Shown here piece by piece: positions 1 to 6,856 of a DNA stretch of 6,970 nucleotides; position 1 is the first letter of the stretch, and each line of letters opens with the position of its first letter. The position numbers were made by a program, and so were the translations under genes. The stretch is from a virus. Below the pieces are notes generated by a model, which saw nothing but the letters and a program-made list of their open reading frames with translations, did not search any database and had not been told where the DNA came from. The DNA is taken from the IMG/VR virus record IMGVR_UViG_3300022745_000015, positions 1 to 6,970 of that record; one strand, 5' to 3'.

Positions 1-127
1 AAAATTAGAACATCCTCTAAACGAGGTTTATCAATCCCTGACGGGAAATTTTAAGGCGACCAAGCAATGACCAAAATAGTAGTTCCCTCTCCCGAAGTCC
101 GCGAAATGAAGGGCATCGGCAAAACGT
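1..127. repeat. Terminal redundancy, left copy (identical to 6844-6970)
   Basis: Base-by-base reading shows 1-127 equals 6844-6970. The repeat includes the gene V start codon (67 = 6910). Confidence 0.97.
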
Positions 128-357
128 CCGGCAAACCTTATCACATGCGGATTCAAACTGCATATCTGTATCCATGCGATGACGCTGGAACCTTCGGGGA
201 ATTTCCTGACAAATTCGAGATTTCCCTCGAAGAAAACCAACAACCCTACCCCCGCGGTCATTACCAGTTGCACCCTTCAAGCGTTCGCGTGTCGCGGGAT
301 GGACGCATAGAAGTGCGCCCCCGCTTGGTCGCGATTCCCTCGAAGCAAAACGCTTGA
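67..357 (+). CDS. gV: ssDNA-binding protein, Ff gene V protein (g5p) homologue, 96 aa
   Basis: ATG at 67 with AAGG at 53-56 upstream. Hand alignment to remembered M13 g5p shares GKPY, the Q..Y block, L.E.Q..Y.(P/R)G.Y..H.SS..V and a C-terminal RLV, at similar length (96 vs 87 aa). Confidence 0.9.
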   Translation: MTKIVVPSPEVREMKGIGKTSGKPYHMRIQTAYLYPCDDAGTFGEFPDKFEISLEENQQPYPRGHYQLHPSSVRVSRDGRIEVRPRLVAIPSKQNA

Positions 358-367
358 GGGGTGCGCC

Positions 368-583
368 ATGCACATCAATGACGTCGAATCAATCGGGCAC
401 ATTGCGCGCCTGGCGGTTCTCTCCGCGCTTGCTCGTGCTGCCCTTGGTGCCGAAGCAGAGCTCGCGCCCGAAGTTTCAAAAATGGTCATTACGGTCGAAC
501 GTACAACGGACGGTAACCCGTATCCCGTTTCGGCTGAGTTTTACGGCGCCCACGCTATCCCCGTGGGTGGGATGAGCTTATGA
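368..583 (+). CDS. Hypothetical protein, 71 aa
   Basis: ATG at 368 is preceded by GAGGGG (355-360). Its stop overlaps the next start in ATGA (580-583). I recognise no motif. Confidence 0.6.
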   Translation: MHINDVESIGHIARLAVLSALARAALGAEAELAPEVSKMVITVERTTDGNPYPVSAEFYGAHAIPVGGMSL

Positions 584-774
584 GCTATCTCGCCGATTTG
601 GCCCAAGAGCGCGAGCTTGCTATTGAAGTCACCTTCCGCCTGGGTGGCATCCCCAAAGACGTCCGGCGTTTGTTGGTACGTGCCATGAATCAGATTGAGC
701 AGGAAATGCTGTCCAGCATCCGGCACGGCTTCGAAGTCTCTCATGCTGACTGGCTAAATACGCCTGCAATATGA
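580..774 (+). CDS. Hypothetical protein, 64 aa
   Basis: The ATG lies inside the ATGA overlap with the upstream ORF, and its own stop lies inside a second ATGA (771-774). The predicted protein is helical and charged with no recognisable motif. Confidence 0.6.
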   Translation: MSYLADLAQERELAIEVTFRLGGIPKDVRRLLVRAMNQIEQEMLSSIRHGFEVSHADWLNTPAI

Positions 775-923
775 GCAACATCGCTCGTCGCTTCGTGGTC
801 ACCCGGTCCTGGCTTGAGTGCCATTCGTCCGGGGACTATCCCTATTTCGCCACCATCGAACTGCAAAACCTCATGGCCCGGGTTCGTGAGGACGCGGCCT
901 ATTTGATTGGGATGGACGCATGA
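771..923 (+). CDS. Hypothetical protein, 50 aa (not in the supplied ORF track)
   Basis: Hand translation gives MSNIARRFVVTRSWLECHSSGDYPYFATIELQNLMARVREDAAYLIGMDA. It exactly fills the gap between two ORFs, with ATGA overlaps at both ends (771-774 and 920-923). Confidence 0.5.
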   Translation: MSNIARRFVVTRSWLECHSSGDYPYFATIELQNLMARVREDAAYLIGMDA

Positions 924-1441
924 TTGCGGCGTTGTTTGTCCGGCGTAACAGTCATTACAAGGATATTCCTGGCGTTGATTGTTATGACGCGGACCGGGAC
1001 GCGCTCACATTTAAGGGCGGTTTCCCTGGCATTTATCACCCTCCATGCCGTGCGTGGGGTAAATACGCTCATTGGGCCAAACCTCGGGCAGGCGAACGTG
1101 AGCTGGCTATCTGGTCGATGGATATGTGTCGCAAGTTCGGCGGCGTCATCGAGCATCCTTCAACGTCCAAACTGTGGACTGAATCCAAGTGCCTGAATTA
1201 CGGCGTGCGCGATGATCACGGCGGCGTATTGATTCCAGTTTATCAATCCTGGTGGGGCCATCGTGCACAAAAGGCCACCTGTTTTTATATCGTCGGACCT
1301 CTCCCTCACATTCCTGAAAACCCGGAAATTCGGCCAACGAAAACTATTGAAGGCATGGGCCGCGCCGAGCGGGAAAAAACACCTTTCGAGCTGGCTCTAT
1401 GGCTTGTCAATGTCGCTCGTGATTGCGAGGTCTCGCCATGA
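920..1441 (+). CDS. Hypothetical 173-aa protein with DNA cytosine-5 methyltransferase-like core motifs, lacking the SAM-binding motif I and a target-recognition domain
   Basis: ATG at 920 sits in an ATGA overlap. Motifs are GGFP..HPPC(43)RAWG (motif IV-like), IE(78)HP (ENV-like), Q(117)KATCFYIVG (motif VIII-like) and REKTPFELA (motif X-like). No FxGxG is present. Confidence 0.8.
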   Translation: MIAALFVRRNSHYKDIPGVDCYDADRDALTFKGGFPGIYHPPCRAWGKYAHWAKPRAGERELAIWSMDMCRKFGGVIEHPSTSKLWTESKCLNYGVRDDHGGVLIPVYQSWWGHRAQKATCFYIVGPLPHIPENPEIRPTKTIEGMGRAEREKTPFELALWLVNVARDCEVSP

Positions 1442-2253
1442 GCGCGCCCGAGGCTCTGAGCATGGCGAGCGGCTCCGCCGCCGACATGCACAGCGCCGAA
1501 GGCGCGGGGCTTGTCTCATTTAAAACAACTCAGATTTGTGTCAATTTATCCCCCTCCGCGACAGCGGAAAGGCGGGTAAAGCGGCTAAAAAAATCGGTCT
1601 GGGCCTCTGGCCACCTTCACGGCCTTGCTGACAACGGCTTCCGTGCCCCGCAATGCTGGTTCGTCACCCTCACCTATCGCGGCGTCGATGACTGGCAAAA
1701 AAACCATATCAGCAAGTCGCTTGATCTGTTTCGCAAGTGGTGCTACCGCAAGTCGATTCCCTGCCGTTACACCTGGGTTGCAGAGCTGCAAAGTCGCGGC
1801 GCTGTTCACTATCACCTTTTGGTCTGGCTACCACAAGGCGTCCGTATGCCCCAATGGGACCGCAGCTATGGCACAAAGTCCAAGTTCTGGCCTCACGGCA
1901 TGAGTAACACGCAAAAAGCAAAAAGCGGCGTTGGCTACCTCATGAAATATCTGTCCAAGCTGGGCGAGCTGACCCGGTTTCCAAAGGGCCTGAGGCTCTA
2001 CGGCATCGGCGGTCTGACACCACAAGCCCGCGGTGTTCGCTCCTGGCTCAATCTGCCGGAGTGGGTCAAGGCTGATTACGGCGTGGGCGAAGTCGTTAGA
2101 AAAAAAATCGGCCTGCTCGTCAAGGCGACGGGCGAACTATTGGACCCGGCCTATTCGGTCCAGCTCATCCCTCACGGTCTCATCGTTACCCCCCTGCGAA
2201 AAGTCTCGCAGCGCTGGCATGACGGGGCCTATTCGAAAGTGAATTTCGCATGA
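1438..2253 (+). CDS. Rolling-circle replication initiation protein (HUH endonuclease, gene II functional analogue), 271 aa
   Basis: Motif 1 is FVTLTY (1660-1677), the HUH motif HYH is at 1807-1815 (HYHLLVW), and the two-tyrosine motif YLMKYLSK is at 1936-1959. I prefer the ATG at 1438 (ATGA overlap with the upstream stop) over the TTG at 1423 used in the ORF track. Confidence 0.9.
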   Translation: MSAPEALSMASGSAADMHSAEGAGLVSFKTTQICVNLSPSATAERRVKRLKKSVWASGHLHGLADNGFRAPQCWFVTLTYRGVDDWQKNHISKSLDLFRKWCYRKSIPCRYTWVAELQSRGAVHYHLLVWLPQGVRMPQWDRSYGTKSKFWPHGMSNTQKAKSGVGYLMKYLSKLGELTRFPKGLRLYGIGGLTPQARGVRSWLNLPEWVKADYGVGEVVRKKIGLLVKATGELLDPAYSVQLIPHGLIVTPLRKVSQRWHDGAYSKVNFA

Positions 2254-2363
2254 CCGAATTATTTTTGCAGGGCGTTGCGTCCCTCGTTGCTATTGGTGTC
2301 GTCGGTGTCGTCCTGAATATCTGGATGAAGCGGCTAATTGATCGCGTTATTTTTAAGGGGTAA
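2250..2363 (+). CDS. Small hydrophobic protein, 37 aa, g7p/g9p-like minor coat candidate (not in the ORF track)
   Basis: Hand translation gives MTELFLQGVASLVAIGVVGVVLNIWMKRLIDRVIFKG: one hydrophobic helix followed by a basic tail. Its ATG lies in an ATGA overlap with the Rep stop (2250-2253). Its position before the coat gene matches Ff gVII/gIX. Confidence 0.55.
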   Translation: MTELFLQGVASLVAIGVVGVVLNIWMKRLIDRVIFKG

Positions 2364-2367
2364 AAAA

Positions 2368-2673
2368 ATGTCTGCCGTTTCTGATGTTGGTCTGCAAGTC
2401 GCACAAAACCTTTTCACGGTCGTTCAGCCTGCCCTATTGGTCGTCCTGGGCGCGTTCGTTACGTTCGTCGCGGCTGTGTACGGCGTGGTTCACGTCCTGG
2501 CCCTCATCAACGGCAAACCCTCGTCGTCGGTCGCTTACGACATGGGGCGAATTTTCGGCTCCATGGTGTACGAATCCGACTATCGCGATTACCGCGATAA
2601 ACGCGAAGCAAGCGCAGCGCGGCGGGAACGAAACGCCAAATTCTCGCGGCGTTATCGAAGCGAAAAGTATTGA
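2368..2673 (+). CDS. Membrane protein, 101 aa, paralogue of the major coat hydrophobic core with a long charged C-terminal tail
   Basis: ATG at 2368 is preceded by AAGGGG (2355-2360); the TTG at 2338 in the track is less likely. Residues 19-48 match the coat protein helix at 18 of 30 positions by hand alignment. The C-terminus is Arg/Lys/Tyr/Asp-rich. Confidence 0.75.
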   Translation: MSAVSDVGLQVAQNLFTVVQPALLVVLGAFVTFVAAVYGVVHVLALINGKPSSSVAYDMGRIFGSMVYESDYRDYRDKREASAARRERNAKFSRRYRSEKY

Positions 2674-2735
2674 ATTGATGCGCGTTGCATCGACCCTCGC
2701 CGGGTGGGTTACTCGGTAATTTTGAAAGGTTCGTT

Positions 2736-2936
2736 ATGAACAAGATCGTTAAATTGGGCGGCGTTGCTGCTCTGGCCCTGGGTGCTGTGTCCTCTTTCGC
2801 AGCTATCGATACCACCGCTGCCACCAGCGGCATTGCTGACGCACAAGCGGCTACCCTGGTTGTTCTCGGCGCTATGGTCACCATGGGTGCTGCCGTGTTC
2901 GGGGTGAAGAAGATTTTGCGCCTGATCGGTCGCTAA
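2736..2936 (+). CDS. gVIII: Major coat protein precursor (g8p-like), 66 aa: 22-aa signal peptide plus 44-aa mature protein
   Basis: ATG at 2736 is preceded by GAAAGG (2724-2729). The signal peptide MNKIVKLGGVAALALGAVSSFA is followed by a mature AIDTT... protein with an acidic N-terminus, a hydrophobic core and a basic KKILRLIGR tail. This is the classic inovirus coat architecture and size. Confidence 0.9.
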   Translation: MNKIVKLGGVAALALGAVSSFAAIDTTAATSGIADAQAATLVVLGAMVTMGAAVFGVKKILRLIGR

Positions 2937-2951
2937 ACCCTCGGGTTGTTC

Positions 2952-2975
2952 GTGTGGCTCCTTGCGGGGCTACAC
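2952..2975 (+). terminator. Stem-loop directly after the coat gene (possible attenuator or terminator)
   Basis: GTGTGGCTCC-TTGC-GGGGCTACAC forms a 10-bp stem including two G-T(U) pairs. Ff phages place a terminator after gVIII. No T-tract follows here, so the call is weak. Confidence 0.35.
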
Positions 2976-2996
2976 CTGCAACCATAGGCATAAAAC

Positions 2997-3578
2997 GTGA
3001 AATCAATCCGGCTCTATCTCCTGGCGTTGTGCGCCCTGCTTTGCTCTCAATCCTGGGCGGTTGTTACCTTCACGACGAACCAGACAAATACAAAAATTGT
3101 CGTTTCCGTGGATAACTCCTGCAATGCAATGATGCTTGCCCTGATGACCTCGCTCAATGTGGTCGCATCCACTAAAGCGCCATTCAAGGCGTATTCGTGC
3201 AGCGATGACCCGGTCCTTCAAACCTCTACGCTAATCCTGAAAGATTCGCTCGCCACACCGACCACGTATTACACAACCTTCACCAGCTGGACCAATGACG
3301 CCACCAAAGCACTCGCCACCTGGCAGGATTCCATTAACACGCAAAACGCGGCCATATCCCTGATGCAAACCAAGGTAGATTCGTTCATCGCGGGTGCGGC
3401 GTCTGCCACTGGCGGCGGTACGTCTGCACAGATAACCGTCAAGGATGCGTTCGGCACCGCGACGCCTGATGAATACGCGGCACTGTCAAAAATGTTCGGC
3501 CTCATCCTGGCGGCGGCTGCTGTCATTTGGGGCGTCAAGCAAATCAAGAATCTGCTTCTCAAGCGTCCTGAGGCTTAA
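2997..3578 (+). CDS. Secreted, C-terminally anchored virion or membrane protein, 193 aa, with a g8p-like C-terminal module
   Basis: A GTG start at 2997 gives a textbook signal peptide (MKSIRLYLLALCALLCSQSWA). The first in-frame ATG would delete it. The C-terminus PDEYAALSKMFGLILAAAAVIWGVKQIKNLLLKRPEA mimics the mature coat protein (acidic, hydrophobic, basic). Confidence 0.75.
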   Translation: MKSIRLYLLALCALLCSQSWAVVTFTTNQTNTKIVVSVDNSCNAMMLALMTSLNVVASTKAPFKAYSCSDDPVLQTSTLILKDSLATPTTYYTTFTSWTNDATKALATWQDSINTQNAAISLMQTKVDSFIAGAASATGGGTSAQITVKDAFGTATPDEYAALSKMFGLILAAAAVIWGVKQIKNLLLKRPEA

Positions 3579-3580
3579 CC

Positions 3581-4966
3581 ATGAGGATAAAAAACGATGT
3601 TCGATCCGTTACTAATGGCCTACGGCCTCGGCCTAGTGTTCCTGCTCTCGCTCTCTTTCCGCTGAGACGTGCGGCGCTTGCGCTTGCCTTGACCCTTGGC
3701 GCGTCCGGGTCCTGGGCTGGATATGCTCAGCTTGCGCCACCTCCTAACTGGGTCGCAAATACGATTAAAGTCGCTGCCAATGATGTGTCATTCGCTGGCG
3801 GTGTTCGGTCGGCGTCTGCTGTCGTTCAGGTCGCGGGGACTGCTGTAACCATGCCTGCGGCCTATCGTTTCGCGGCAAACGCTGGTAGTGTTGCTGCTTC
3901 GGCTGCGTTCGCTAATCCTGGCATTTTTGCGGCTCTTGCTATAGGGTCAACGGCCTATGCTGCTTATCAATGGTTTAAGGATGCGGGGTTCGAAGTACAG
4001 AACAACGTCTGGCAAAAAAAGACCATCACGACTACGTGCGCGGCTGGAACCGAAACTTACGGGACCGGGCAATGTGTGTCCTATCAAAAATTGTGCATCA
4101 CGGGTCAGCGCGGTCCGTTCTCTGACGTCCTCCAGGGTTGTCCCTCTGGCACGTCTGCCGTCATTCATATTCCGGCCAGTGGCACACCTTATTACACGGC
4201 CAAGGACCCGACCGGATACCCGTATAGCTCTAACTTTTACGGTCAAATTACCTCGGGCATCCCTGCCACCAAATACGACCCGGCCACCGAGCAACAAATT
4301 AAAGATGGCATGTCGTTGATTAACGTTCCCGGCAATGTCCCCCAGGTGTTCCCGGTCCCTAACGTTGCCTGGCCCGTTGAATCTCCTATCCTTAACCCGT
4401 CCCCTGCCCCTAGTCCGTCCAACCCTCTGACTGACCCGACGCCCACGCCACAACCAATGCGCGTTCCCCAGGGTGACCCGGTGCCGATCCCAAATACTTC
4501 CCCACAGCAATACAAAACGCCCGTCATCGATATAGTCCCTTCGCCGACTGCTGATTACCCCTGGCGCGTCGATATGCAGCCAAAAGACATAGTTACGACT
4601 AGTCCATCTCCTCTGCTCGTCTCGCCAGTTACCAGCACAACGTCCGGTACTGCTACGCCTACCGCTACAACGTCCACGCAAACCGACTGCGACAAGTACC
4701 CCGACAGCATCGGTTGTGCAAAATTCGGGGACCAGCCGCAGCCCGACAAACTTGTCAAAAATGACGTTCCCTTCACCCTGGCCACTGAGGTTTTCTCGTC
4801 CTCGTCCGGCTGTCCTTCTGATTTGACATTTAGCGTCATTGGTCGTTCATACGCGGTCAGCTACCGCCCGATCTGTGACCGTCTTGCACTCCTTCGCACC
4901 CTGTTTATCTGCATGGCGGGTGTGATGGCTGCTTATATCCTGGCCGATTCTTTCAAGATTCAATAA
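3581..4966 (+). CDS. gIII: Adsorption / minor coat protein (g3p-like), 461 aa
   Basis: It is the largest structural ORF and lies after the coat gene. It has a signal peptide ending at SWA (residue 46), Cys-containing domains, Pro-rich and Thr-rich linkers, and a C-terminal hydrophobic anchor LFICMAGVMAAYILADSF. GAGG lies 7 nt upstream of the ATG. The start is somewhat ambiguous (see findings). Confidence 0.85.
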   Translation: MRIKNDVRSVTNGLRPRPSVPALALFPLRRAALALALTLGASGSWAGYAQLAPPPNWVANTIKVAANDVSFAGGVRSASAVVQVAGTAVTMPAAYRFAANAGSVAASAAFANPGIFAALAIGSTAYAAYQWFKDAGFEVQNNVWQKKTITTTCAAGTETYGTGQCVSYQKLCITGQRGPFSDVLQGCPSGTSAVIHIPASGTPYYTAKDPTGYPYSSNFYGQITSGIPATKYDPATEQQIKDGMSLINVPGNVPQVFPVPNVAWPVESPILNPSPAPSPSNPLTDPTPTPQPMRVPQGDPVPIPNTSPQQYKTPVIDIVPSPTADYPWRVDMQPKDIVTTSPSPLLVSPVTSTTSGTATPTATTSTQTDCDKYPDSIGCAKFGDQPQPDKLVKNDVPFTLATEVFSSSSGCPSDLTFSVIGRSYAVSYRPICDRLALLRTLFICMAGVMAAYILADSFKIQ

Positions 4967-5250
4967 TGGGCACCCTCGCAACTTTTTTAATGAGCATTGC
5001 GGGTCCCCTGGCGTTCAGGGTCCTGACTATGCTTGGCATCGGCACTGTCACATTTACGGGCATAACTGCTGGCCTGCAAACCCTCATGGCCCAGGCCACA
5101 ACCAACTGGGCATCTGTAACGGGTGACGTCTTGCAATTGGCATCCCTGGCTGGCATCCCTCAGTGCCTGGGCATCATCTGCGGCGCGATGACCTCCCGTG
5201 TCGGCATCTGGGCTGCTGTGTCTGCAACTCGTTGGGTTGTCGCAAAATGA
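4966..5250 (+). CDS. Minor coat / membrane protein (g6p-like by position), 94 aa
   Basis: Its start overlaps the g3p stop (TAATG, 4964-4968). The protein has hydrophobic segments and sits between the g3p-like and g1p-like genes, as in Ff gVI. Confidence 0.75.
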   Translation: MGTLATFLMSIAGPLAFRVLTMLGIGTVTFTGITAGLQTLMAQATTNWASVTGDVLQLASLAGIPQCLGIICGAMTSRVGIWAAVSATRWVVAK

Positions 5251-6359
5251 TCTACTTAATTACGGGCGTTCCTGGCTCGGGCAAAACCCTCTACGCGGTT
5301 TCCACGCTTATCCAAAAATTAGCGTCTGAAAAAATCAAGGGCGATGATGGCCAGGACATTGAACGGCGGGTCGTTATTGACGGCATCCCGGATCTGGTTA
5401 TCCCCCATGAAATGATGGCGCCACCGCTCAAAAGCCATGAGGGCAAAACGGACCGGGGTGAGGGTGACGGGTTGTGGAACTGGCACAAGTGGTGCAAACC
5501 CGGTGACGTCCTGGTCGTCGATGAGGTCCAGCGCCATTGGCGTCCGCGTGGTATGTCCACAAAGCCACCCGAAGAAATCACGATGCTGGAAACACACCGA
5601 CACCTCGGGGTTGATTTCATCATCATTACGCAAAATCCAATGCTCATCGATCAGAACGTAAGGCGTCTGGTCGGTCGGCATCAGCATGTGCGGCGCTTGT
5701 TCGGCGGTGCGCGTGCGGCCATCTACGATTGGGACGGCTGCTCTGTCGATGTACATCGGACCGGCACAGCCACCACGACATATTGGGGCTACCCGAAGGA
5801 CGCCTACAAGCTCTACAAGTCCTCGGAGTTGCACACAAAGCAAAAACAAAAAATCCCTATCTGGCTGGTCGTCCCTGTCCTGGGCATCATCGGCGGCATC
5901 TTCCTTGCACCTCAGGCCATGGCGGTCATGACGGGCGCGGCTACTGGCAAAGGTATTTCTAGCAAAAAAGTAGAAGTGCCTCCTCCGGTGCTGCCTGCGC
6001 CAGTGTCGCTACCTCCTGCACCTGCTACACCCGGTCAACAAACTACGCCACCCGTCGCGGGGACCCTGCCACCTGCGCCACTCCCTGGTACTGCATCAGA
6101 TAAGCCAGTAATTGCAGGCTGTATCCGTACGGCCACCCGCTGCGGCTGCGTCGATGAAAAAGGCGTTGCCGTGGACGTCGAGGAAAAAATTTGTCACTCC
6201 CTGGCCCCATCAGGCACAAAGGTGGTTGATCTGGGACCAGATACGCCCATTAGCCCTGAATCTCGATTTGCGTTTGAAATGGGCCAAATGGCCAGAACTG
6301 CCGGACCCTCTGCGCCTCCCGCCACTGAAAAACCACGGGGACCCGCTCGGAGCGATTAG
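5247..6359 (+). CDS. Assembly ATPase, Zot / g1p family, 370 aa
   Basis: ATG at 5247 lies in an ATGA overlap with the upstream stop; the GTG at 5163 in the track is rejected. Walker A GVPGSGKT is at 5265-5288 and Walker B-like is VLVVDEVQ. A single TM helix IPIWLVVPVLGIIGGIFLA is followed by a Pro-rich, Cys-containing periplasmic tail. Confidence 0.92.
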   Translation: MIYLITGVPGSGKTLYAVSTLIQKLASEKIKGDDGQDIERRVVIDGIPDLVIPHEMMAPPLKSHEGKTDRGEGDGLWNWHKWCKPGDVLVVDEVQRHWRPRGMSTKPPEEITMLETHRHLGVDFIIITQNPMLIDQNVRRLVGRHQHVRRLFGGARAAIYDWDGCSVDVHRTGTATTTYWGYPKDAYKLYKSSELHTKQKQKIPIWLVVPVLGIIGGIFLAPQAMAVMTGAATGKGISSKKVEVPPPVLPAPVSLPPAPATPGQQTTPPVAGTLPPAPLPGTASDKPVIAGCIRTATRCGCVDEKGVAVDVEEKICHSLAPSGTKVVDLGPDTPISPESRFAFEMGQMARTAGPSAPPATEKPRGPARSD

Positions 6360-6381
6360 CGACGGATAAGCGGGGCGGGGT

Positions 6382-6400
6382 ATGGGGCGGCGTGCCCCAT
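6382..6400. terminator. GC-rich hairpin between the convergent Zot-like and repressor genes
   Basis: ATGGGGC-GGCGT-GCCCCAT forms a perfect 7-bp stem with a 5-nt loop. It lies between the stops at 6357-6359 (+) and 6409-6411 (-). There is no U-tract on either strand, so it may instead be a ssDNA structural signal. Confidence 0.35.
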
Positions 6401-6408
6401 GTAAGGCG

Positions 6409-6807
6409 TCAGCATAGGCATTGCCTATCGAAACGGGCAGGGCTATATATACCATCTATACATCGTATAAAGTAGGAAACCGCCTCACTAGCGGTAGCCG
6501 AACACGAAACGGCGGCCGCGCCAGTCGCTACCAAGGCTTTTTTTAGTGCTTCGCGCAGGCGCTTTCCTTTCTCGGTCCCTTCGTACTGCGCGGCCACGGC
6601 TCGGCACGTCCACACGGTCGGCTCCATCCCGGCAATCTCGGCCATTAGTGCTACGTCACCCGCTGGACATGGCTTTCGTCCGTGTCTCCAGTCGCTAACG
6701 GCTGATCTTCCGACCTCTAGGCGCTTTGCCAATTTGTTGTCGTTTCCTGCCTCTTTACTGGCCAGGTCGATCAATTCAATTAAAAAATTATTTTCGGGCT
6801 TGTGCAT
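6409..6807 (-). CDS. HTH DNA-binding protein, putative phage repressor / immunity regulator, 132 aa
   Basis: ATG at 6807 is preceded by a strong AAGGAG (complement of 6814-6819). The Cro/XRE-like helix-turn-helix reads NKLAKRLEVGRSAVSDWRHGRKP. It is the only gene on the - strand and is divergent from the structural and replication operon. Confidence 0.85.
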   Translation of the reverse strand: MHKPENNFLIELIDLASKEAGNDNKLAKRLEVGRSAVSDWRHGRKPCPAGDVALMAEIAGMEPTVWTCRAVAAQYEGTEKGKRLREALKKALVATGAAAVSCSATASEAVSYFIRCIDGIYSPARFDRQCLC

Positions 6808-6836
6808 TTGTGCTCCTTTCGAGTACATTACGCGCC

Positions 6837-6856
6837 ATGTTCTAAAATTAGAACAT
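6837..6856. promoter_or_regulatory. Candidate operator: 20-bp palindrome in the divergent intergenic region
   Basis: ATGTTCTAA-AA-TTAGAACAT has perfect 9-bp inverted arms and lies between the repressor start (6807) and the gene V start (6910 = 67). A weak sigma70-like pair, TAGAAC (6849-6854) N17 TATCAA (6872-6877), would make the operator overlap the -35 of the rightward promoter. The promoter assignment is tentative. Confidence 0.55.

Follow-up and report, generated by a model that had tools for sequence, protein, structure and literature searches.

Of all SAM-binding elements in class I methyltransferases, a group that includes DNA cytosine-C5 methyltransferases (C5-MTases) such as M.HhaI and M.HaeIII, the FxGxG loop is conserved best. 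In M.HhaI, the arginines of motif VIII touch the target cytosine, while the reference consensus sequences for motifs IX and X read TxRExARL and GNxVP, respectively. Among viral enzymes, an iridovirus C5-MTase of reduced length can methylate plasmids although it reportedly has neither motif IX nor motif X (PMC10899263), and Pf filamentous prophages carry dcm (PMC7549136). One described relative of the protein analyzed here is Gp8 of the Rhodobacter microvirus Ebor, which is already annotated as a 'putative DNA methylase' on the basis of HHpred (E 2.3e-8; PMC11980548). Gp8 shares 44% identity over 97% of our target, and this independent HHpred assignment carries the same label as the original prediction for the present locus, which had described a minimal C5-MTase-like protein encoded by an ssDNA phage (PMC11980548).

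The window analyzed here is the whole 6,970-nucleotide stretch of viral record IMGVR_UViG_3300022745_000015. Its exact 127-nt terminal repeat implies a circular, inovirus-like genome of 6,843 bp, and a Pfam scan recovered a filamentous ssDNA phage gene set comprising the ssDNA-binding protein (ssDBP; Phage_DNA_bind), REP_ORF2-G2P, Zot and a repressor, consistent with the predicted ssDNA phage origin. A blastn search with the full genome as query, run against 50,697 phage records, returned no match. As read from the list of open reading frames, the target ORF starts with ATG, encodes 173 amino acids and takes up approximately 7.6% of the phage genome. It is one link in a chain of ATGA-type overlaps at 580, 771, 920, 1438 and 2250, and the following features define its immediate surroundings:

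920-1441, + strand: target ORF, a single-domain C5-MTase-like protein and member of PHROG 12600 (ORF list, PHROG match, homologues, AF2 model, Foldseek)
920-923, + strand: ATGA overlap between the target start codon (920-922) and the stop codon of the upstream orf50 (921-923), read directly from the sequence
1438-1441, + strand: ATGA overlap between the target stop codon TGA (1439-1441) and the rep start codon ATG (1438-1440), read directly from the sequence
1438-2253, + strand: co-translated neighbor, the rolling-circle replication initiator REP_ORF2-G2P (Pfam PF23343, E 1.9e-32; PHROG 2969)

The overlap at 1438-1441 bears out the predicted translational coupling of the target ORF to rep, and an overlap with the downstream Rep gene was found again in related small viral contigs.

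The target belongs to PHROG 12600, a large uncharacterized phage family, with a significant full-length profile match (E 7.8e-52) and shared invariant residues. One search identified 557 homologues and another 1,931 clusters at 50% identity; members were found in at least 585 viral loci, spanning inoviruses, microviruses and tailed phages, and in the genomes of at least 332 bacterial species. Genomes bearing the family can be as small as 4.7-7 kb. No model in Pfam (at E<=1), NCBIfam or PADLOC matched the target. Even in a lenient Pfam scan at E<=10, none of 76 diverse family members matched PF00145, and the Dam, N6_N4_Mtase and D12 models found no match inside the target domain of these 76 proteins.

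To locate the residues held constant in the family, column composition and conservation were determined across these 76 members, with identity down to 37%. P41, P42, C43, G75, E78, P80, S83, Q109 and K118 are invariant. The conserved segments, together with one variable linker, are as follows:

932-1003, + strand: N-terminal conserved region, residues 5-28, with beta1 'AALF', S11, Y13, D23, R26, D27 and A28 (column composition)
1037-1051, + strand: motif IV equivalent H40-P41-P42-C43-R44, with Cys43 (codon 1046-1048) as putative nucleophile (P41, P42 and C43 in 76/76; C43 placed on C81 by hhalign)
1139-1168, + strand: putative motif VI equivalent G74-G75-V-I-E78-H79-P80-x-x-S83, with the Glu78 codon at 1151-1153 (G75, E78, P80 and S83 invariant)
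1244-1297, + strand: motif VII/VIII region Q109-x3-G113-H114-x3-K118-x-T120-x-L-Y123-I-V-G126 (conservation, hhalign)
1298-1369, + strand: short, variable, Pro-rich linker, residues 127-150, at the position of a target-recognition domain (length comparison)
1370-1438, + strand: C-terminal motif R151-E152-x-T154-P155-x-x-F-A-x-W-L and final helix 156-168, candidate equivalent of motif IX or X (conservation, AF2 helix)

In the AF2 model, Cys43 lies in the loop after strand beta4, and Glu78 ends the strand formed by residues 75-80, after a long helix (59-73). The motif strings and residue numbers first proposed (HPPC with Cys43, IE78HP, Q117KATCFYIVG and R151EKTPFELALWL) are exact in the ORF. The spacings of 35 residues between Cys43 and Glu78 and 39 between Glu78 and Gln117 had been described as near those of M.HhaI, and indeed compare with 38 (Cys81-Glu119) and 42 (Glu119-Gln161) in the M.HhaI sequence as verified against PDB 10mh. 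The identification of Gln117 as the motif VIII glutamine, on the other hand, did not survive the family comparison, as column 117 is unconserved among the 76 sequences (E14, R14, P12, Q11). Conservation in this region resides instead in the invariant Q109 and K118 and in G113, H114, T120 and Y123, each kept in at least 90% of the members.

The C-terminal motif is conserved as well (R151 in 74/76, T154 in 75/76, P155 in 74/76 and L162 in 75/76). It had been described as resembling motif X, but under the standard Posfai/Kumar numbering the consensus quoted there, RxLTPxExARL, belongs to motif IX. Only a single C-terminal motif (RExTPxxFAxWL) is recognizable; its similarity to motif IX in hhalign is weak and falls short of significance (E 0.09), and it also bears a likeness to the motif X-type RSSVPxxLI of small methylases related to Lactococcus phage P087 gp15 (P087-like proteins). 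At the other end of the protein, the N-terminal columns are strongly constrained (n = 76: L5 73, S11 66, Y13 75, D23 73, R26 74, A28 74). This region occupies the position of the SAM pocket of C5-MTases, from which we infer a role in cofactor binding.

Several parts of a canonical C5-MTase are missing, as had been predicted. The FxGxG motif is absent from the target, and no GxG loop follows beta1 in any of 267 family members, where the sequence reads LF-V/A-R-x-D/N-S-x-Y-K. The Phe-to-Cys distance is 37 residues in the target compared to 63-64 in M.HhaI and M.HaeIII, corresponding to a cofactor half shorter by approximately 26 residues. Where the recognition domain would be expected, the count from G126 to R151 gives exactly the 24 intervening residues of the earlier estimate (approximately 24; family range 20-59, median 25), whereas in M.HhaI and M.HaeIII motifs VIII and IX are over 100 residues apart, the distance from the Gln of motif VIII to motif IX being 111-122. 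No target-recognition domain was present in any family member examined, and a literature search on mini C5-MTases devoid of this domain found nothing relevant. Finally, the residues aligned with motif VIII QxRxR are Q117, A119 and C121, each at an unconserved position, so that both arginines are absent and, in agreement with the original prediction, replaced by Ala and Cys.

We next consider the evidence for structural kinship. The AF2 model of the target has a pLDDT of 94 and a pTM of 0.89, and Foldseek comparison with 350,542 PDB chains placed DNA C5-MTases at all of the best 50 matches, led by M.HaeIII (E 8.1e-4) and followed by DNMT3A/B, DNMT1, ZMET2, DIM2, M.HhaI and CP-933R; these best 50 included no amino-methyltransferase, DNMT2 or RNA m5C methyltransferase. 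The model thus has the catalytic-domain fold of class I methyltransferases and, among solved structures, comes nearest to C5-MTases, with marginal scores (TM 0.33-0.53, about 0.45 for the best match; rmsd 4-8 Å). In a viral fold library, the best matches were proteins of 200-250 amino acids annotated as cytosine methyltransferases (E 3.3e-7, TM 0.61-0.63), and a single phage N6-adenine methylase appeared at rank 44 (E 0.068).

Profile comparison of the family with 27 verified C5-MTases by hhalign gave a score of 26.4 (E 0.0047), higher than a reversed control and all 200 column shuffles (mean 14.2, maximum 24.1). The alignment runs collinearly across motifs IV and VIII, superimposing HPPC on GFPC, C43 on M.HhaI C81, and target residues 113-126 on GIPQKRERIYMIC of M.HhaI. 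Direct alignment to M.HhaI is offset by approximately 5 residues at E78, which aligns with the ENP of P087-like methylases. The latter form a bridging family: they match C5-MTases with an hhalign probability of 91% and share a signature with the target (VIENPxxSxxW and VLEHPxxSxLW, respectively). Together, the fold and profile comparisons support the predicted relationship to C5-MTases, while the Pfam search at PF00145 does not. With N-terminal and C-terminal fragments, hhalign scores were at noise level. A single-sequence search of the PDB with the target found nothing, and the matches of a PDB profile search, which placed the C-terminal helix on designed helical repeat proteins, were rejected as spurious. 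Relatives of P087 gp15 itself are few, with 28 close ones in a large protein search and none in the viral-contig scan.

The genomic surroundings of family members are typical of orphan phage methylases. Fusions join the domain to D12 Dam methylases (2 members) and ParB_N, and genes for N6_N4_Mtase, canonical DNA_methylase, Lar, NinB and NinG occur as neighbors, with HTH and zinc-ribbon proteins also among the DNA-directed partners. In one case a Dam gene directly precedes the homologue, and another homologue is situated within a Mu-like packaging module, a location in which lactococcal 936 phages also carry orphan methylases (PMC4190342). The enzymes characterized in that study are adenine methylases only, so that it offers no functional precedent for small C5-like proteins (PMC4190342). 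The label 'DNA N-6-adenine-methyltransferase' under one tblastn match was found to belong to the adjacent gene, the homologue being an unannotated ORF. In 11 of 61 viral loci the homologue is immediately upstream of Rep, often overlapping it, as it is here, in fSU1 and in Ebor; the downstream Rep types are Rep_trans, REP_ORF2-G2P, Rep_1 and microvirus VP4.

On balance, we consider it somewhat probable that the target is an orphan DNA cytosine-C5-modifying enzyme, probably SAM-dependent, that protects phage DNA from restriction. It represents a miniaturized single-domain homologue of the C5-MTase catalytic domain, which retains the predicted machinery of covalent catalysis (Cys43 in PPC, Glu78, the motif VII/VIII region and the C-terminal helix) and lacks the glycine-rich FxGxG loop, approximately 26 residues of the cofactor half and the entire target-recognition domain. 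Methyl transfer from SAM could then take place in a non-canonical pocket lined by F6, S11, Y13, D23, R26, D27, R151 and E152. Since the early replication operon yields both the protein and Rep, the protein could act on the replicative form as soon as it is formed, and modification at that moment would shield it from host restriction. That approximately 7.6% of a genome in the 5-7 kb range is given over to this gene argues for a strong benefit, most plausibly restriction escape, and the lack of a recognition domain suggests very short or relaxed sequence specificity. As a counterpoint, this lack leaves duplex-DNA binding and base flipping without an explanation. Also speaking against the favored reading are the family-wide absence of a glycine loop after beta1, the missing Pfam methylase signal, the marginal fold scores, the loss of the motif VIII arginines and the low share of 5mC calls in phage Ebor (PMC11980548). 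Among tetranucleotide palindromes in the phage, only GATC (0.53) and CTAG (0.67) are low, which does not indicate the target of the enzyme, and the C-containing sites CCGG, GGCC, GCGC and CGCG are undepleted (0.91-1.02).

The invariance of the Cys/Glu pair, in a family without FxGxG, without a recognition domain and with a reduced cofactor half in every member, would also be expected of a C5-MTase-derived enzyme that employs the same mechanism for another reaction or with another cofactor, operates without SAM, or acts mainly on ssDNA, given that base flipping and a recognition domain are needless on single strands. The conserved R8, S11, Y13, K14, D23, R26 and D27 resemble no C5-MTase motif, C5-MTases catalyze SAM-independent side reactions in vitro, and the gene is found directly upstream of rolling-circle Rep proteins from three Pfam families and of microvirus VP4. 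Furthermore, only 1.58% of cytosine calls in phage Ebor were 5mC, and its authors were unable to trace methylation to Gp8 (PMC11980548). We nevertheless regard such an enzyme as unlikely, if deserving of serious attention, since dsDNA tailed phages carry the family just as commonly, at ordinary orphan-methylase sites and in Dam fusions, potential SAM-holding residues remain (an aromatic residue after beta1 and acidic ones after beta2), and no positive evidence points to a different cofactor or product. A 'bare' C5-pyrimidine-modifying core, devoid of SAM loop and recognition domain and directed at ssDNA or replicating DNA with hardly any sequence specificity or none, perhaps with another cofactor or product, is a rather doubtful proposition; if true, phage DNA-modifying enzymes would gain a new class, and the protein would be a candidate minimal tool for sequence-independent cytosine modification. 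There is a very slender chance that the substrate is RNA, as in a DNMT2-like tRNA enzyme, or a free nucleotide (dCMP or dCTP). The lack of a DNA-reading domain would fit a small or structured substrate, and DNMT2-type enzymes, sequence relatives of M.HaeIII and M.HhaI, have the C5-MTase fold; the top 50 PDB matches, however, contained neither DNMT2 nor RNA m5C methyltransferases, and the fusions and neighbors (Dam, ParB_N, HTH, zinc ribbon, Lar) are DNA-directed.

The losses of motif I, the recognition domain and the motif VIII arginines, combined with the lack of a Pfam methylase signal, could alternatively reflect an inactive derivative resembling dead paralogues of the DNMT3L type. It might be a relic, regulate by binding DNA, or act as a decoy for a host restriction or defense factor, which it would titrate. 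This we judge improbable. Cys43 and Glu78, which dead paralogues typically lose, are invariant in 76/76 members, arguing for retained catalysis, and the strong conservation of the N-terminal half across approximately 1,900 clusters contradicts the degenerate relic that had been among the options first raised. Purifying selection on the 1,931 clusters is strong, even where the genome measures no more than 4.7-7 kb, and in four related inoviruses the target gene is 60-66% identical compared to just 33-45% for Rep, ssDBP and Zot. A related inovirus appears to be replicating in Variovorax sp. GB1P17, on contig NODE_27 (about 1,149x coverage, 7,012-bp tandem unit). An amino-methyltransferase (N6-adenine or N4-cytosine), with HPPC as a variant of (D/N/S)PP(Y/F) as in small phage Dam families, appears very improbable. 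The PP core and the beta4-loop-helix-beta5 layout are common to class I DNA methyltransferases, the viral fold list contained the N6-adenine methylase at rank 44, and Ebor DNA gave 11.5% 6mA calls, which its authors were unable to link to Gp8 (PMC11980548). The interpretation of HPPC as a DPPY variant was our initial idea, and it was dropped after the PDB fold search, in which the top matches were all C5 enzymes and none an amino-methyltransferase. Moreover, the C5 signature consists of a Cys where the stacking aromatic would otherwise stand, combined with an invariant Glu at the ENV position, the domain itself gave no Dam, N6_N4_Mtase or D12 match, and the D12 matches in the family correspond to separate, fused domains outside it. 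In the two fusions concerned, the complete D12 Dam domain alongside the target domain argues for a complementary rather than redundant activity. Equally slight are the prospects that the protein serves rolling-circle replication as an accessory factor to Rep instead of protecting DNA, in which case the link to Rep here, in fSU1, in Ebor and in 11/61 viral loci would be functional and not just positional: most members reside in tailed phages without a nearby rolling-circle Rep, and the partner Rep families are mutually unrelated, as would fit a mobile cassette occupying a permissive site in the early operon.

If active, an orphan, probably SAM-dependent cytosine-C5-modifying enzyme, as favored here, would rank with the smallest known DNA cytosine-C5 enzymes and would imply that neither the glycine loop nor a recognition domain is indispensable to a class I fold, the one for cofactor binding and the other for engaging DNA. 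A minimal enzyme of relaxed specificity could serve epigenetic footprinting, whereas an ordinary m5C methylase that recognizes a short site would amount to a useful annotation without surprise. Because the family is absent from Pfam and NCBIfam, many 'hypothetical' phage proteins would gain a function.

Canonical C5-MTases (PF00145; M.HhaI, M.HaeIII, Dcm) provide the best structural matches to the target, which resembles M.HhaI in its Pro-Cys motif after beta4, the invariant, candidate motif VI Glu that ends the next strand, a motif VIII-like strand and near-equal spacings. In contrast, the target measures 173 amino acids compared to about 330, lacks FxGxG, the recognition domain, the motif VIII arginines and approximately 26 residues between beta1 and the Cys, and has just one recognizable motif of IX and X. 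Ebor Gp8 belongs to the same family and is likewise encoded directly upstream of a rolling-circle Rep in an ssDNA phage, although that phage is a microvirus and the present one an inovirus; its annotation derives from one HHpred match, and the missing motif I and recognition domain are not discussed in the paper (PMC11980548).

A further comparison is offered by small viral C5-methylase-like proteins (about 210-250 amino acids) of Lactococcus phage P087 (gp15), Mycoplasma phage MAV1 (MarMP), Halobacterium phiH and a Tetraselmis virus, which head the Foldseek matches in the viral library. These share PPC and E-x-P-x-x-S-x-x-W with the target and, like it, lack a canonical FxGxG and a full recognition domain, but they are 40-70 residues longer, retain a motif III-like segment as well as the helix that follows beta1, and still reach PF00145 weakly (E 0.022). 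Sequence similarity between them and the target family is barely detectable (E 0.012), no experimental data on these proteins came to light, and a literature search on MarMP yielded no paper evidently dealing with its function. The iridovirus enzymes, ISKNV DNMT and that of frog virus 3 (the HHpred match Q67472, which we take to be this virus's DNA methyltransferase), are likewise shortened viral C5-MTases. ISKNV DNMT, reportedly without motifs IX and X, methylates DNA de novo, and these enzymes are reported to differ from the target in keeping motif I (PMC10899263); they are encoded by large DNA viruses of eukaryotes. Lastly, the target shares with inactive paralogues of the DNMT3L type a reduced C5-MTase fold without the normal cofactor site, yet the catalytic residues are lost in DNMT3L, whereas the target family preserves both Cys43 and Glu78 throughout.

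The last 127 nt of the 6,970-base window are an exact copy of its start, which indicates a circular genome of 6,843 bp, and its gene set is that of a filamentous (inovirus-like) ssDNA phage:

67-357, Phage_DNA_bind ssDNA-binding protein (ssDBP)
368-583, small ORF of 71 aa (orf71), between ssDBP and target
580-774, small ORF of 64 aa, between ssDBP and target
771-923, small ORF of 50 aa, between ssDBP and target
920-1441, plus strand, target ORF, 173 aa
1438-2253, rolling-circle initiator REP_ORF2-G2P (Rep)
2250-2364, short hydrophobic ORF of 37 aa (MTELFLQGVASLVAIGVVGVVLNIWMKRLIDRVIFKG), read by eye, below the ORF-list cut-off
3581-4966, g3p/TspB-like putative adsorption protein, 461 aa
5247-6359, Zot
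6409-6828, minus strand, divergent HTH repressor

Small membrane and coat-like ORFs and a g6p-like protein are also present. The early genes are chained by ATGA stop/start overlaps (at 580, 771, 920, 1438 and 2250), and the target stop overlaps the rep start, in agreement with the coupling originally proposed. We found no nucleotide-level relatives of the whole genome among phage records. The three small ORFs preceding the target had no matches in Pfam, PHROGs, NCBIfam or PADLOC, and a homologue could be detected for orf71 alone, in a single related viral contig (L006; 41% identity). The 37-aa ORF, which begins at the ATGA overlap with the rep stop, may encode a small phage membrane protein. 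The adsorption protein gives weak hits to the Neisseria TspB C-terminal region (Pfam E = 2e-4) and to several PHROGs of unknown function, and its middle region is Pro/Thr/Ser-rich. Within the genome unit (1-6843), GATC is scarce (14 observed, 26.5 expected, ratio 0.53), as is CTAG (ratio 0.67), and the C-containing palindromes CCGG, GGCC, GCGC and CGCG stand at 0.91-1.02; the low GATC and CTAG counts may reflect pressure from host Dam-linked or GATC-targeting restriction.

The target matched PHROG 12600 ("unknown function"; E = 7.8e-52); Pfam, NCBIfam, PADLOC and the PDB sequence set gave no match. A word-indexed search returned 557 relatives, none of which has a name or a Pfam domain, and an exhaustive profile search yielded representatives of 1,931 clusters at 50% identity, with E below 1e-30 for 374. 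The gene occurs in at least 585 viral contigs, whose lengths group at about 5-9 kb and at 30-60 kb, and in the genomes of at least 332 species of Proteobacteria, Bacteroidota and Acidobacteriota, the closest homologues being from Comamonadaceae and other Burkholderiales. Isolated phages with a homologue include the inovirus Xanthomonas fSU1, the microviruses Rhodobacter phage Ebor and Tortoise microvirus 37, and tailed phages of Pseudomonas, Caulobacter and Ralstonia. The family is real, large and uncurated. One homologue, missed in the record of a 77-kb Caudoviricetes genome (MW202476.1), occupies an unannotated ORF at 3001-3393, directly downstream of an annotated Dam methylase.

An AlphaFold2 model of the target, built on a 41-sequence alignment, was very confident (pLDDT 94.0, pTM 0.89) and describes a six-stranded alpha/beta protein (strands 2-5, 19-22, 37-39, 75-80, 102-108 and 119-125) whose long helix covers residues 59-73 and whose C-terminal helix covers 156-168. 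In a Foldseek comparison with 350,542 PDB chains, DNA cytosine-5 methyltransferases (C5-MTases) took all of the top 50 places; the matches comprised M.HaeIII, M.HhaI, DNMT1, DNMT3A/B/C, ZMET2, DIM2 and the CP-933R prophage enzyme. The scores were marginal (best E = 8.1e-4, query-normalised TM 0.33-0.53, rmsd 4-8 Å), but a list made up of C5-MTases only is informative despite them, because the PDB is rich in other Rossmann-fold methyltransferases. Stronger matches came from a viral library; these proteins are unusually small and carry cytosine methylase annotations (A0A0A0RJX0, E = 3.3e-7, TM 0.61; a Tetraselmis virus protein, TM 0.63; the phiH C5-MTase; Lactococcus P087 gp15). As modelled, the target has a C5-MTase fold.

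At the sequence level, none of 76 diverse family members matched PF00145 even at E ≤ 10. We therefore compared the family profile with a C5-MTase profile of M.HhaI, M.HaeIII (both verified) and 25 viral C5-MTases. The 90-column local hhalign alignment (score 26.3-26.4, pairwise E = 0.0047, uncalibrated probability 7%) places HPPC43 on GFPC81 of M.HhaI and residues 113-126 on motif VIII (GIPQKRERIYMIC). None of 200 controls with shuffled columns scored as high (mean 14.2, sd 2.4, maximum 24.1), nor did the reversed profile (17.9). A bridging group is formed by P087-gp15-like proteins (~238 aa, "putative C5 methylase") of Lactococcus, Streptococcus, Enterococcus and Mycoplasma phages, which align with canonical C5-MTases at 91% hhalign probability (E = 1e-6) and whose VIENPxxSxxW pairs with the family's VLEHPxxSxLW (E = 0.012). 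This shared motif supports the assignment of Glu78 as the putative ENV glutamate. The P087 gp15 record itself (11474-12112, "DNA methyltransferase", 212 aa) seems short at its C terminus, its ~238-aa relatives extending to a motif X-like segment, NYNLRSSVPxELI. The record may contain a frameshift or a sequencing error. For Ebor Gp8, 44% identical to the target, an HHpred match to UniProt Q67472 (E = 2.3e-8) led to the label "putative DNA methylase" (PMC11980548). That label for one homologue is already known; we found no account of the family's unusual architecture in the literature.

The original prediction of a minimal C5-MTase-like protein thus holds in its essentials, given the fold matches and the placement of C43 on C81 of M.HhaI. 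HPPC43, IE78HP, Q117KATCFYIVG and R151EKTPFELALWL all lie where predicted, and the Cys-to-Glu and Glu-to-Gln spacings of 35 and 39 residues compare with 38 and 42 in M.HhaI (sequence checked against the PDB). P41, P42, C43, G75, E78, P80, S83, Q109 and K118 are invariant across the 76 members (down to 37% identity), and near-invariant positions run from the N terminus to the middle (L5, Y13, D23, R26, A28, H40, W46, G74, H79) and through the C-terminal part (G113, H114, T120, Y123, R151, T154, P155, L162). Cys43 and Glu78, the putative nucleophile and N3-protonating acid, are therefore among the best-conserved residues, which argues for retained covalent catalysis and disfavours the degenerate relic or simple decoy that had also been considered. 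The proposed motif VIII-like segment is present, but Gln117 itself is variable, the conserved neighbours being Q109, G113, H114, K118, T120 and Y123. The RxLTPxExARL-type consensus is motif IX in the usual C5-MTase numbering and had been mislabelled motif X; the family's RExTPxxFAxWL helix matched neither significantly and could be either.

FxGxG, the motif I SAM-binding loop, is absent from the target as claimed, and a glycine loop was found in the N-terminal half of none of 267 members. Compared with M.HhaI, this half is short by ~26 residues (Phe-to-Cys 37 vs 63), yet strongly conserved all the same (S11, Y13, D23, R26, D27/N, A28), so it presumably binds something; an aromatic residue that follows beta1 and acidic ones that follow beta2 would fall at C5-MTase sites touching the SAM adenine and ribose. 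The target-recognition domain (TRD) slot spans 24 residues in the target, as first noted, and 20-59 across the family. Since an HMM match, motif I, the motif VIII QxRxR and a TRD are all missing, we do not file the target under Pfam DNA_methylase; to judge from the model, it does have a C5-MTase fold, and most plausibly it works like a C5-MTase.

In ssDNA phages, the gene lies directly upstream of Rep, usually overlapping it (window, fSU1, Ebor), and does so at 11 of 61 scored viral loci, with Rep proteins of three Pfam families (Rep_trans 6, REP_ORF2-G2P 4, Rep_1 1). Tailed-phage neighbours are N6_N4_Mtase, NinG and NinB downstream and a canonical DNA_methylase and the restriction-alleviation protein Lar upstream, a setting typical of orphan methylases. 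In two members the protein is joined to a complete D12-class Dam methylase, and in one to ParB_N. N-terminal extensions of 50-105 aa in six members (P0193, P0234, P0260, P0204, P0151, P0171) resemble small DNA-binding modules (AbrB/SpoVT-like, Cys-rich zinc-ribbon-like, HTH) and may supply DNA binding in place of the absent TRD; many others look like ORF-calling artefacts. Relative to the window, four inoviruses (L116, L117, L004, L113) have a target homologue 60-66% identical and ssDBP, Rep and Zot 33-45% identical, whereas L006 shows the opposite pattern (Rep 70%, target 60%), suggesting strong constraint, cassette exchange or both. One of these, on a 14,255-bp contig of Variovorax sp. GB1P17 (NODE_27; NZ_JBPJZR010000027.1; L115/L116), is a tandem repeat of 7,012-bp period, syntenic with the window (ssDBP, target homologue, Rep, g3p, g6p, Zot). 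Its coverage is ~1,149x, where a chromosomal contig from this assembly has ~33x, and a third copy lies in the chromosome (L118). NODE_27 probably represents a phage replicating as an episome in a cultured isolate, which offers a ready experimental system.

In M.HhaI-type chemistry, Cys attacks C6, Glu acts at N3 and C5 is methylated from SAM. Fold, conserved residues and context are shown here, and we infer SAM as the cofactor, DNA cytosine as the substrate and protection as the role: orphan C5 modification, with SAM in a non-canonical pocket, that shields the phage from restriction, a reading we hold at somewhat better than even. By analogy, Cys43 would attack C6, Glu78 would protonate N3, the activated C5 would accept the methyl group and beta-elimination would free the enzyme. 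Early co-translation with Rep would allow the replicative form to be modified while being made and so protected from host restriction. Because a recognition domain is lacking, short or relaxed specificity is expected; alternatively, specificity may come from oligomerisation or partner domains.

Several points speak against a methylase: neither the SAM loop nor a TRD is present at all, motif VIII lacks its arginines, and Ebor DNA gives a low 5mC signal (1.58% of calls) that the authors of that study were unable to assign to Gp8 (PMC11980548). That the enzyme uses another C5 chemistry or cofactor, or acts on ssDNA, is a serious minority option, at about one chance in five; non-canonical cofactor binding, ssDNA action or a non-m5C product would, if true, carry far greater significance. 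An inactive regulator or decoy is improbable given the invariant Cys and Glu. We consider it slightly less probable still that HPPC is a variant of DPPY in an amino-methyltransferase, against which the fold matches and HMM results speak, and give equally little weight to a Rep accessory factor, given the spread in tailed phages. An enzyme directed at RNA or nucleotides appears the least likely.

An orphan-methylase role finds parallels in known systems. In the Mu-like Pseudomonas phage Doze, the homologue sits between a small DNA-binding protein and a large packaging gene, a slot resembling the placement of methylases within the packaging module in lactococcal 936 phages (PMC4190342). A shortened iridovirus DNMT, which reportedly has neither motif IX nor motif X, remains able to methylate DNA (PMC10899263), and dcm genes are found in filamentous Pf prophages (PMC7549136); these last two precedents make a methylase plausible.
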